Assembly (NCBI RefSeq): GCF_018977255.1
Contig: NW_024704742.1
Location: forward strand, 93,312,001-93,376,000
Source of the DNA: Callorhinchus milii
Lineage: Eukaryota
Length of the DNA stretch: 64,000 bases
Direction: 5' to 3'
Position numbers and translations under genes: made by a program. Of the stretch, positions 2,095 through 34,718 are shown one piece after another; the stretch's first letter is position 1; each line of letters begins with the position of its first letter. Under the pieces are notes generated by a model, which made no database searches, was not told the DNA's origin, and saw only the letters and a program-made list of their open reading frames with translations.

Positions 2095-2174
2095 CTTTGA
2101 AAATCTTCTTCGCCAATTGTAAGAGTATACAAGAAAAAGGGATCCGTGTCATCCGTCAAACGTACAATTAAATC
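2095..2174 (-). CDS. SASS6: SASS6 coding exon 3 (80 nt, PISA motif start)
   Basis: ttttcattag|DLIVRLTDDTDPFFLYTLTIGEEDFQ+AG|gtaggt. Confidence 0.95.
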
Positions 2175-5100
2175 CTAATGAAAAGTACAGAAATTAGTTA
2201 TTTTATTTAGGTTTTGCCAATTTCTTCCTCTCAAGAGAAATCAAAGGCAAATCCAATTCTATGCTCATTAAATATCCATGCATTTGCACGTTTTCACAGG
2301 GATTGTTGAATAACAATTAAGAAAGAGCACCCTGGCAGGTTCTCTCCTCCAGTTGGTGATGGTGGGGGCAGGAAAGCAGGGAGGCTGTGGTCATCTGCCA
2401 ACTCTGTGGAATCAGCTAAATGAGCAAACCTTAAAGCCTCTGGTCCGCATGACACAGTGCATTTACCAGGTTATCAGATGATATAGCGAATTATTTTAAG
2501 TATTAACAAATAAAACAGATACTGTATTAAAATGAGCTCCAACGTGTTAATAGTTAGAATCCAATGGTAACAAAGAAGCAAAAATACATACTGTGAACAT
2601 GTAACTAACGATTCAAAGAAAATGTGAATAAGGTATATTTTCATTCCTGAAAACAAACTCAGTTGTAAACTTGCTGGGACTTATCTTTTGTGAAAAATTC
2701 TTGACAGAATCCTTCAAAAGCTTAACATTGTTCAAGTGAGCTAATGCAAGTACAATTAAAAGAACCATGTTTAGTGAAACTTGCCCTAAAGCTCGCAAAA
2801 ATATTTTCTTAAGAAGATTTGATTGTGGTGCACTGAAGAATGCACCACAATCAAAAATGAACATCTTTGTGAATGTTAAATTGAACAATAATAATTTACA
2901 GGCATCTACGGCTACTCTAGTATGTTAAAACCACAATCTCGAAAAAACAACAGTGATTGAATCAGCTTGTATGGATGCATTCGTGAGGAATCCTAGACCT
3001 TCACATGAGGGAAAAGGGGATAGAAGGGAATGGGAGGGAATTAGTGAAGACTTGTGCGGTGAATAAACACCAAAACAGACTGGTTTGTTTCAAAGCTGTA
3101 GATTCTTTGTAACTCATTATTTTAAAATGGTTGGGAGTTACAGTATAAACAAAAGGCAACTCTTAGTGCACAAGCCAAATGTTTATTGTAGGTATAATTA
3201 CTTTTGTTTCTAAAGGTAATAAAGTCAGGGATAAATATATAGATTCAGCTTTGCTCACTTCTGCATTCAAGGAGTTCAAGGCAGTTAATGGTGTCAAATG
3301 TTATTAGTACAAACTGGAAAAAATACTATGGCATACCACAGAGCAGAGCCACAGATTATAACACAAACACACCAATGGGTTTGATAAGGGCAAGGTTTAC
3401 ATGAGAGACTACTCCGGTTTCAAATATATACAGATGGATGCTTTGTAAAGAAAATTACTGATAATTTGATACCAATTATCAGTCTCACTCAATGAGGCCG
3501 CTTCCACACTGGGGAGCACTCTGGTTTCAAATATTTACCTTATCTTTTGTGAAGAAAATGCTTAATAATTTGGTACAATTGTGAGCCTCGCTGAGACTTT
3601 CTTCACTGGGGAATACTCCCCTTTAAAATATTTACTTGAAAGCTTTCTAAAGAAATAGCTAATAATTTGGCACTACCTCCAAGTCTTAATTAGAAACAAC
3701 ATTCGGTGCTGGGAATTGAAATGTCACCAATACAGTGAGCTTTTTTTGGAAAAAAGATTCAAGCAGCATTTCTTTCATGTCCCAGTCGATTGAGAAAATT
3801 GATGAGTTGGCAAGCAAGTGAAAGTAATTCACTGCCAAAGTTGTTTTAAAAAAGACATTTTAACTTAACAAGGTAAAATTGATATTTTCAGTTTTCGAGG
3901 TTAATTAATTTTCAAATACATTCATCTTAAAAATTAAAAAGGGACCCTTTGGATCCATTTTGAACAACATGTAGGATAACACCTTGGAGCATTGCACTAT
4001 GGTAGGGTTGCACCAATCGAGTAAGGGAGAAGGGACATGGGAAGTTGACCACAGTGGCAGTCGAAGAGATAGGTTTTAAGGCGGGATTTAAAGGTTGCTA
4101 GAGAAGGTGAGGTGGAGTAGTTGAGGTAGCGAGTTCCAGAGGTGAGCACAGTGGCTGAAGTTAACACACTATGTTACAAACAAAATGTTTCTGGTTAATG
4201 ATTTAATTCATATCAATATTCTGTACAGCAGAATCTGAAAATCTGCTCCAGTTAGTTTTGCAAACAGCAGCCCAGGCAAACAGGAATCCTAGATTGTGAC
4301 TAAGAACAACCTCAGCTGCTTTTCAGTGATTCAGAAATGGGGGAGAAAAGGTTTACTTCAAAATGCTTTTTAAAACATTTCCTTATTAAGCAGATTTATA
4401 TTTAGAAATTTTTCAATTTTAATTCCAAAAGCAGGTTGTTTTCAAATATTTTACGAAATCCTTCAGTGGATCACAGTAAACATAATAATACTTGCATTTG
4501 ATATAACACCATATCACATCGCTTCACAGAATATACTGTAAAGTGAATTGACTGTATAATGTATGGGCAAAACACAGCTTTATTAAATTCCTTTATTATT
4601 CCTCCCTACGTGAAAGGCACTCTATAAATGTAATTTTGTTGTTGTTGTTTTACTGTGATTGGTGCCGGGGCCCATAAAATGAAACTGTTACAACAGCGCA
4701 CGTTGCAATAAGGGCTGTTCATCAGACGTTGCAATAAGGGCTGTTCAAAATGCAAGGATTCTGTTTAACCAGATTAGCCAGGGGCGCACTAGCATTACTG
4801 AGCCCACCCGCGATGCCTGCACACCATGACCAAAAAACAACAGAAGTAAATTGTTGGTCTACAACGTTTCCACATTATATCTGTATAATGGCCGAGGATT
4901 GCACACTATGTAAAAAAATAAAAATCAAGGTTTCCCCAACTAGAAACGTAGCTGCTACATCAAAAACTGAGAAAACACAACTTGTGTCAGTACCCTGAGG
5001 GGTAAACTATGATCTAATGATTCCTGTTGGTAAGTGCAAATCACATGGCTATCAGATGAGAATAGGATCTCATCCTATTGTATTGAAGAGTTGTATTAGT

Positions 5101-33900: not shown

Positions 33901-34718
33901 AAACCAAGTAGGCTATTCCTCCACTGGAGGAATAAAGGTTAATCCCAATTCAGTTCTTACTTGAATCCACACCCCAGTTTGAATAATGCTCAGCAGCCAG
34001 AGTGCTGGCTGATTTTTTCTCTCTCTACCCTAGAGGACACTGGGTTCAATTATTAACTGCTGCCCATTTGAGATCAATGCACTCAGCATAAATCAGGGTT
34101 CAAGCCCATCACCTTCTATTTATGTAGTGCTCTACCAGCCAGTGGATTTACCCAGTAAGCCATTGGAGAAGGGTCTAATAATAATAATAGTAATAAAAAT
34201 AATAATACTTGCATTTGATATATAGCACCTTATAAATCTTTGAGACATCTCAAAGCACTTCACACAATAGACTGTAAAGTGGAATGTATATTTTATGGGT
34301 GAACGCAGCAACTAATTTGCACACGACAGTGTCCCACAAACAGCCATGGTGCGAGTGATCAATTTTATTCGGGGCTTTGTGTGCTTTTAATGACAAGCAG
34401 AAAAAAAGAGAAAATCTCATGCTTCGTATTTAACAAAAAAATATTTTATCATTGGTGCTACGATATGAATAAGTTGTCAGATTCAGCTGAATTTGGGCAC
34501 ACATGCTTCAGGAAACACTTTGGATGTGTTGGGTTTGCATTTATTACATTTGACTCATGTGCTAACCCGGATCTTAAAAGAAACTCAACTTACCTTGCTA
34601 GTGCACTCTTCTCCTGTCTTTCTCGCTCCCTCTTTTGCCGGTCTTTGTGTTTTTTTATTCTACCTTCCCATTTGGCTCTCAAAGTTGTCAAATTAACTGA
34701 AACAATAACAGGAGCCAT
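18906..34718 (-). CDS. LRRC2: Leucine-rich repeat-containing protein 2, complete CDS, 8 coding exons, 1140 nt / 379 aa
   Basis: All introns GT-AG with matching phases. N-terminus [28 protein letters not shown] array, and C-terminus [13 protein letters not shown], matching LRRC2 (human [13 protein letters not shown]) and not LRRC39. Head-to-head with TDGF1 as in human. Confidence 0.95.
21710..21846 (-). CDS. LRRC2: LRRC2 coding exon 7
   Basis: [45 protein letters not shown]+G|gtaatt. Confidence 0.92.
23303..23455 (-). CDS. LRRC2: LRRC2 coding exon 6
   Basis: [50 protein letters not shown]+AA|gtaagt. Confidence 0.95.
24817..24962 (-). CDS. LRRC2: LRRC2 coding exon 5
   Basis: [48 protein letters not shown]+AG|gtaact. 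Confidence 0.95.
24970..25160 (-). mobile_element. CR1 3' end abutting an LRRC2 splice acceptor
   Basis: Similar to the CR1 3' UTR at 36400-36560; ttctatgattctgtg tail. Confidence 0.8.
25306..25772 (+). mobile_element. Same SINE family with an internal (GAAT)n expansion
   Basis: Head, core and tail all recognisable. Confidence 0.85.
25522..25587. repeat. (GAAT)n microsatellite, about 16 units
   Basis: Direct inspection. Confidence 0.95.
26059..26283 (-). mobile_element. Young L2 3' UTR fragment
   Basis: Nearly identical to 7575-7800. Confidence 0.88.
27757..28047 (+). mobile_element. Same SINE family
   Basis: Partly deleted head, core and tail. Confidence 0.85.
29620..30055 (-). mobile_element. 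Older Deu-domain SINE, near full length
   Basis: Reverse copy of the 54560 family. Confidence 0.7.
30138..30274 (-). CDS. LRRC2: LRRC2 coding exon 4
   Basis: [45 protein letters not shown]|gtaacg. Confidence 0.95.
31531..31752 (-). mobile_element. Penelope-like element fragment with a decayed hammerhead motif
   Basis: Homologous to 46299-46520; contains a CTGACAA-stem-GAAATGTT motif on the minus strand. Confidence 0.6.
32341..32497 (-). CDS. LRRC2: LRRC2 coding exon 3
   Basis: [20 protein letters not shown]...[15 protein letters not shown]+G|gtaagc. Confidence 0.95.
33056..33290 (-). CDS. LRRC2: LRRC2 coding exon 2
   Basis: [14 protein letters not shown]...[13 protein letters not shown]|gtttgt. 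Confidence 0.9.
33418..33900 (+). mobile_element. Young 5'-truncated L2
   Basis: Same family as 9602; long (TTG)n tail; taaacc on both flanks (possible target-site duplication). Confidence 0.92.
34594..34718 (-). CDS. LRRC2: LRRC2 first coding exon (acceptor at 34764, so a 5' non-coding exon is likely upstream)
   Basis: [41 protein letters not shown]+AG|gtaagt. Confidence 0.9.

Follow-up and report, generated by a model that had tools for sequence, protein, structure and literature searches.

The SASS6 gene beside LRRC2 in Callorhinchus milii: a probable ancient paralogue, rather than orthologue, of human SASS6

SAS-6 self-assembles into the nine-fold cartwheel of the centriole, an excess of it is tied to extra centrioles, and it is treated as one conserved gene. 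Whether it is one gene is the question raised by a stretch of 64,000 nucleotides from the chimaera Callorhinchus milii (C1:93,312,001-93,376,000, hereafter the window; it is without any N), in which the start of a SASS6 gene lies next to LRRC2. The initial annotation, made from the sequence of the window, had offered two possibilities: a second SASS6 that was lost in mammals, or reciprocal loss of two old copies. The reading favoured here, with a probability of roughly 0.9, is ancient SASS6 paralogy with reciprocal loss, the human-type copy having gone from the chimaera. On this reading the window gene (SASS6-B) would be a paralogue, not an orthologue, of human SASS6 (SASS6-A). The parts of the gene that lie in the window are as follows.

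12212..12276, minus strand: SASS6-B coding exon 1, 65 nt, starting at the ATG and lying within a CpG island
5369..5429, minus strand: SASS6-B exon 2, 61 nt
2095..2174, minus strand: SASS6-B exon 3, 80 nt, encoding Ile62
12001..14000, no strand: CpG island over the SASS6 start, GC 0.60, 110 CpG in 2 kb

These three exons have AG/GT splice ends and an open frame; later exons extend to the left beyond the window, as far as C1:93,289,584, and a 669-amino-acid protein (P0001) aligns unbroken over the full gene, from C1:93,324,276 to 93,289,584. The initial claim of intact exons 1-3, on the same strand as and downstream of an LRRC gene, is borne out. The protein identical to exon 5 carries the name SAS-6 homolog of Callorhinchus milii.

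Searching with exon 5 yielded 524 matches, and two profile hidden Markov models (HMMs) assign the best 120 of them, which are those listed, to two clades, 67 to A (3 of these being short fragments with small HMM margins) and 53 to B. The same split has support of 100/100 in a 63-row tree and in a more careful one of 30 rows picked from the matches, where the inner branch between A and B measures 0.49 and each side approximately repeats the species tree. Among the matches listed, clade A holds mammals, birds, lepidosaurs (tuatara, gecko), salamanders and teleosts, and clade B holds the window gene, frogs, gars, bowfin, sturgeons, paddlefish and lungfish; no mammal, bird or teleost row falls in B, and every chondrichthyan row seen (15 species) does. 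Latimeria, three caecilians and at least seven turtles have both, the two copies being on different chromosomes in several of the turtles, in caecilians and in the coelacanth, and databases give A and B copies one name. The window protein has 70-74% identity to bony-vertebrate B proteins, and 62-68% to bony A proteins over the first 485 residues.

Outgroups were hagfish, lampreys, amphioxus and five other invertebrate rows, including a priapulid, a crinoid and a coral. Rooting with lamprey and amphioxus among them, a step that the initial annotation had itself proposed, places the window gene and the other chondrichthyans in B with support of 100/100, and A receives 100/98; amphioxus forms one cluster outside A+B, and the outgroup branches are long, as a program warning on the rooted tree noted. 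A single clade of all 15 bony-vertebrate rows is rejected by the approximately unbiased (AU) test (p-AU 9.4e-5). By these trees the split between A and B is older than the divergence of chondrichthyans and osteichthyans. If instead there were a single orthologue of human SASS6, translocated beside LRRC2 and with any duplication later, in bony vertebrates, then one intact copy in the genome and a database name the same as that of the human gene are what might be seen, and both are seen. Yet the AU result is against it, bony B copies also adjoin LRRC2, and the site is the exact paralogous slot, by MFSD14 and in equal orientation, so that such a translocation is highly improbable. A single SASS6 nesting with its bony-vertebrate counterparts, which was to have told against the initial proposal, is half present: the gene is single, but the bony-vertebrate rows do not form one clade.

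Linkage gives the second line of evidence, and for it the upstream neighbour has to be named.

18906..34718, minus strand: LRRC2, 8 coding exons, directly upstream of SASS6-B and on the same strand

This leucine-rich repeat (LRR) gene agrees at 98-100% with a protein that bears the name LRRC2. Its identity is 53-75% with 14 named LRRC2 rows, among which it groups in a tree, and 42% with the LRR gene on C5, dealt with below (~240 columns). Those rows and the C5 gene made up the comparison, with no named LRRC39 included, and the LRRC2 identity that had been proposed for the neighbour stands. In other species linkage was judged by two proxies, location on a contig of the same size and the order of accessions or locus tags. 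B and LRRC2 are on a same-sized contig in all 8 of the other chondrichthyans compared and in 17 of 18 bony species, and A and LRRC2 in none of 6 informative species (four others, with small or mismatched assemblies, were dropped from that count). B and LRRC2 accessions or locus tags are no more than 13 apart in five of six sharks and rays and in four of six bony species; they are consecutive in Xenopus tropicalis (locus tags XENTR_v10001842 and 1843), in Microcaecilia (last B accession XP_030049489, LRRC2 accession XP_030049490) and in Huso. The X. laevis entry Q6NRG6 falls in the same B cluster. Paddlefish and sturgeons have two B copies on two chromosomes, from their own genome duplication, and in Huso and Acipenser ruthenus each B copy adjoins an LRRC2.

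A false join in the assembly at 13-19 kb, named at the outset as a possible artefact, would also put SASS6 and LRRC2 side by side, and the interval is rich in fragments of long interspersed elements (LINEs), with no long read across it. With equal linkage in independent shark, ray, sturgeon, caecilian and frog assemblies, the chance of this is close to negligible.

Comparison of C1 with C5 shows where the human-type gene would have been. The order on C1 is MFSD14(+), SASS6(-), LRRC2(-), EGF-CFC(+), FAM240-like(+), CDC14(+), HABP4-family(-). Taken in reverse, C5 has SLC35A3, MFSD14(+), TRMT13(+), LRR gene(-), DBT(-), RTCA(+), CDC14(+), with no SASS6; the C5 HABP4-family gene is at 3.36 Mb, about 1 Mb from the block at 4.38-4.48 Mb. 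The pairs of MFSD14, LRRC2/C5 LRR gene and CDC14 match in order and orientation, and the HABP4-family pair is also on C1 and C5. Chicken chromosome 8 carries CDC14A, GPR88, RTCA, DBT, LRRC39, TRMT13, SASS6, MFSD14A and SLC35A3 according to PMC11222857, and a figure legend for ayu (PMC8389408) names the same genes. As the C5 order is the chicken chromosome 8 order, C5 is the human-type block minus SASS6. The corresponding regions in human, 1p21 and 9q22, we take to be paralogous. PRXL2C as a further neighbour of the 9q22 type found no support, PF13911 matching only on C7, and a motif scan of 424 kb of C1 gave no credible remnants of TRMT13, DBT or RTCA.

The slot in which a second copy was to be looked for, beside TRMT13, LRRC39 and DBT, is empty: from the 5′ end of TRMT13 to the 3′ end of MFSD14, as placed by RNA contigs, there is about 2 kb, and an A-type HMM run over 200 kb of C5 gives no match at E<=5, whereas 13 exons are detected on C1. 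The sole N in the slot is one base in a homopolymer of the MFSD14 3′ untranslated region, and contigs span it; DNA contigs of three runs cover the slot, the contiguity of which is supported, not proven. Searches of the chimaera's own genome with the Pfam head domain and with two A-type proteins (turtle P0035, coelacanth P0086), in which the best candidates were scored, found no second intact SASS6: matches are to the window gene on C1, to C12 and to C320 and to nothing else, which leaves the window gene as the one intact SASS6 detected. Both of the initial possibilities are upheld: the gene falls in clade B, from which mammal rows are absent, and the human-type copy is gone from the TRMT13-LRRC39-DBT block. 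The initial view needs correcting in a single respect, the window gene being the sole intact copy found here and not an additional one.

The C12 match is no remnant of the lost A copy, being intronless and 93-98% identical to exons of the window gene. It is a processed pseudogene of that gene (C12:12,905,317-12,906,190), 5′-truncated and frameshifted, with seven 3′ exons joined, and as such would imply germ-line transcription of the window SASS6. The C320 match (18-22% identity, with none of 10 B proteins matched) is an unrelated coiled coil.

By tree and synteny SASS6-B would qualify as an ohnologue, and the two matching blocks make an origin of SASS6-A and -B in an early vertebrate whole-genome duplication likely. 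An ancestral block MFSD14-SASS6-TRMT13-LRRC-DBT-RTCA-CDC14 would have been duplicated before cartilaginous and bony fish parted; one block copy would have retained TRMT13, DBT, RTCA and LRRC39, while the other, which bears LRRC2, lost these. SASS6 would initially have been kept in both and later lost piecemeal. The chimaera has lost A; coelacanth, caecilians and turtles retain both, each copy being seen there. Among the matches listed, other chondrichthyans, frogs, gars, sturgeons and lungfish would be left with B only, and mammals, birds, lepidosaurs, salamanders and teleosts with A only, the other copy being apparently absent in each case.

Several points weigh against this account. Cyclostomes lie outside A+B with weak support (82/76), so that the duplication may be of either round; Simakov 2020 (PMC7269912) does not decide between a first and a second round (1R or 2R) for the block. 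That placing of the cyclostomes would fit a real paralogy that arose otherwise, through duplication of a segment a few hundred kb long on the jawed-vertebrate stem, as would the fact that only four C1-C5 paralogous pairs besides SASS6 were seen. However, the pairs span at least 1 Mb of C5 and involve two large chromosomes, as a paralogon predicts, and the segmental alternative is judged unlikely. The C1 and C5 gene names other than LRRC2 are based on Pfam hits and sequence motifs, and the gene trees cover SAS-6 and LRRC2. The linkage proxies stand in for gene maps; the contigs of B and LRRC2 differ in size in Caretta, and in Heterodontus, Emydura and Polyodon their accessions lie apart. Since the best 120 of the 524 SAS-6 matches were listed, losses outside the chimaera are ones that we infer.

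For the chimaera itself, the genome search scores best candidates only and the assembly may be incomplete, and neighbouring DNA contigs across the C5 slot overlap by less than 31 bases, with one unlisted stretch of 180 bases. An A copy that is still present in the animal and absent from the assembly only would go with a search that was not exhaustive and a slot that contigs do not bridge at every base. It is hard to square with a slot of ~2 kb whose single-base N is spanned, and with the finding that all rows of 15 chondrichthyan species are B though 67 A rows stand among the matches listed, and we regard it as very unlikely.

Ancient paralogy with reciprocal loss leaves the chimaera with SASS6-B, a gene that is intact and spliced. 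P0001 has the SAS-6_N head PF16531 (121.7 bits, cut-off 25) and, after it in colinear position by alignment, the Sas6_CC coiled coil PF18594 (41.4 bits, cut-off 26). The initial statement that the frame is colinear with SAS-6 and keeps Ile62 is confirmed by alignment, which adds Phe131. Phe131 is invariant in the aligned rows (17 of 17 B, 16 of 16 A), and at position 62 fourteen of the 17 B rows have I and three have L. Phe131 belongs to the head-to-head contact, and a role is attributed to Ile62 as well. I62T is listed in PMC10411591. As its head and coiled coil are conserved, together with Ile62 and Phe131, SASS6-B would be expected to self-assemble into the nine-fold cartwheel, and it probably builds the centriole cartwheel as the animal's only SAS-6. 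Internal SASS6 exons are joined without introns in contigs of all three probable RNA runs (2 studies), in contrast to DNA-run contigs, which retain the introns, so that the window gene is transcribed and spliced. No TRMT13 lies head-to-head with SASS6 at the CpG island; TRMT13 was found on C5.

The tail of SASS6-B has an S-T-P-rich stretch and a conserved C-terminal extension with the end LPAS, and it differs from that of A in a further respect. Of the rows that have the homologous tail segment, 41 of 54 in A and 0 of 55 in B carry the KEN motif; the rows are not independent of each other, and 11 A and 13 B rows were without the segment or the pattern. In human cells the KEN box drives destruction of SAS-6 via APC/C-Cdh1, and KEN-mutant SAS-6 remains stable throughout the cycle and increases ciliation, according to 10.1101/2024.01.29.576599. 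That stability, with the lack of KEN in SASS6-B, leads to the prediction that B escapes the Cdh1 route: its level may be set without KEN-dependent APC/C-Cdh1 destruction, a regulatory difference to which we give a little less than even odds. Other observations tell against making much of the motif. Lamprey and hagfish are without KEN at the homologous place (a priapulid has it in place and that of amphioxus lies further on), it has been lost in seven pond-turtle and tortoise A rows (P0058, P0059, P0063, P0065, P0066, P0073, P0077), and the A/B difference may be neutral and of either polarity. Pond turtles and tortoises may be without any KEN-bearing SAS-6. A bolder and rather doubtful extension is that jawed vertebrates inherited two functionally different forms, a KEN-bearing A destroyed each cycle and a KEN-less, stable B. 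Turtles, caecilians and coelacanth might then divide the labour (B serving the germ line, early embryos or mass basal-body production), and sharks and frogs might limit centriole number without the degron on which human cells depend.

Beyond LRRC2 the window contains part of a further gene.

50211..50544, plus strand: an EGF exon and a CFC exon, both from an EGF-CFC gene (Cripto/TDGF1-like)

The CFC exon scores 47.4 bits (Pfam cut-off 23.2). The TDGF1 neighbour of the initial annotation is therefore present as an EGF-CFC gene, and the name TDGF1 itself is an assumption. On C1 LRRC2 and this gene are flanked by MFSD14 and by CDC14/HABP4-family genes. Flanks of this type are 9q22 genes in human, where LRRC2-TDGF1 is at 3p21. 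The mammalian LRRC2-TDGF1 pair has likely been relocated, possibly at the time of SASS6-B loss. A small FAM240-like gene of two exons (C1:93,381,441-93,383,407, plus strand) resembles the first LRRC2 exons and shares an intron position with them; FAM240 leads for it score only 0.78-0.80 (Atlas), and neither exon is assigned to a family by Pfam. LRRC2 proteins carry PF27680 FAM240, and the resemblance suggests that FAM240 may derive from the LRRC2 N-terminus. Decayed LINE fragments and short interspersed repeats are abundant in introns and intergenic DNA of the window (e.g. 1000-2050, 7600-8060, 13200-13850, 15050-16550 and 36500-38100).

Human and mouse SASS6 (the MCPH14 gene, clade A) are like the window gene in SAS-6_N head, Sas6_CC, long coiled coil, Ile62 and Phe131. 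They differ from it in being on the other side of the duplication, the window gene having LRRC2 as neighbour and no TRMT13, and its protein no KEN box and a conserved C-terminal extension ending LPAS. SASS6-B would be a member of the SAS-6 family with no orthology to human SASS6. Xenopus SAS-6 (Q6NRG6, NP_001039141) resembles the window gene in each of these respects (clade B, 72.6% identity, adjoining lrrc2, no KEN) and would be its true orthologue; it is named as the human orthologue, and the paralogy is marked in no source found. No account of the A/B split was found in the open literature, and unread supplements, ohnologue tables and subscription journals may list the pair.

Parallels exist. 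Hidden paralogy by differential ohnologue loss has been described for Wnt11/Wnt11b (PMC3296468, in whose main text SASS6 does not occur), and further cases are nanos1A/1B (PMC5932020) and npm2a/b (PMC6233590). The likeness lies in two ancient paralogues with patchy retention, mammalian loss of one, and names that mislead about orthology. SASS6 differs as a dosage-sensitive centriole core gene with losses both ways in several lineages. Among centriole genes, Cep63/Deup1 is a vertebrate paralogue pair. POC1A/POC1B is another (PMC12704290). Both resemble SASS6-A/-B as vertebrate duplicates of centriole genes, but both are kept in mammals, whereas SASS6-A and -B occur together in no more than a few slow-evolving lineages.

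The orthology of a model organism changes, frog SAS-6 not being the counterpart of human or zebrafish-type SASS6, and if the two-form reading were true, work on Xenopus SAS-6 would have been done on the non-human paralogue. Vertebrate phylogenomics should also be cautious in treating SASS6 as a single-copy marker. The repeated loss of SASS6 in both directions fits dosage pressure toward one copy, and a naturally KEN-less SAS-6, together with the species that have two copies, would offer systems for the study of centriole-number control without Cdh1-dependent destruction.

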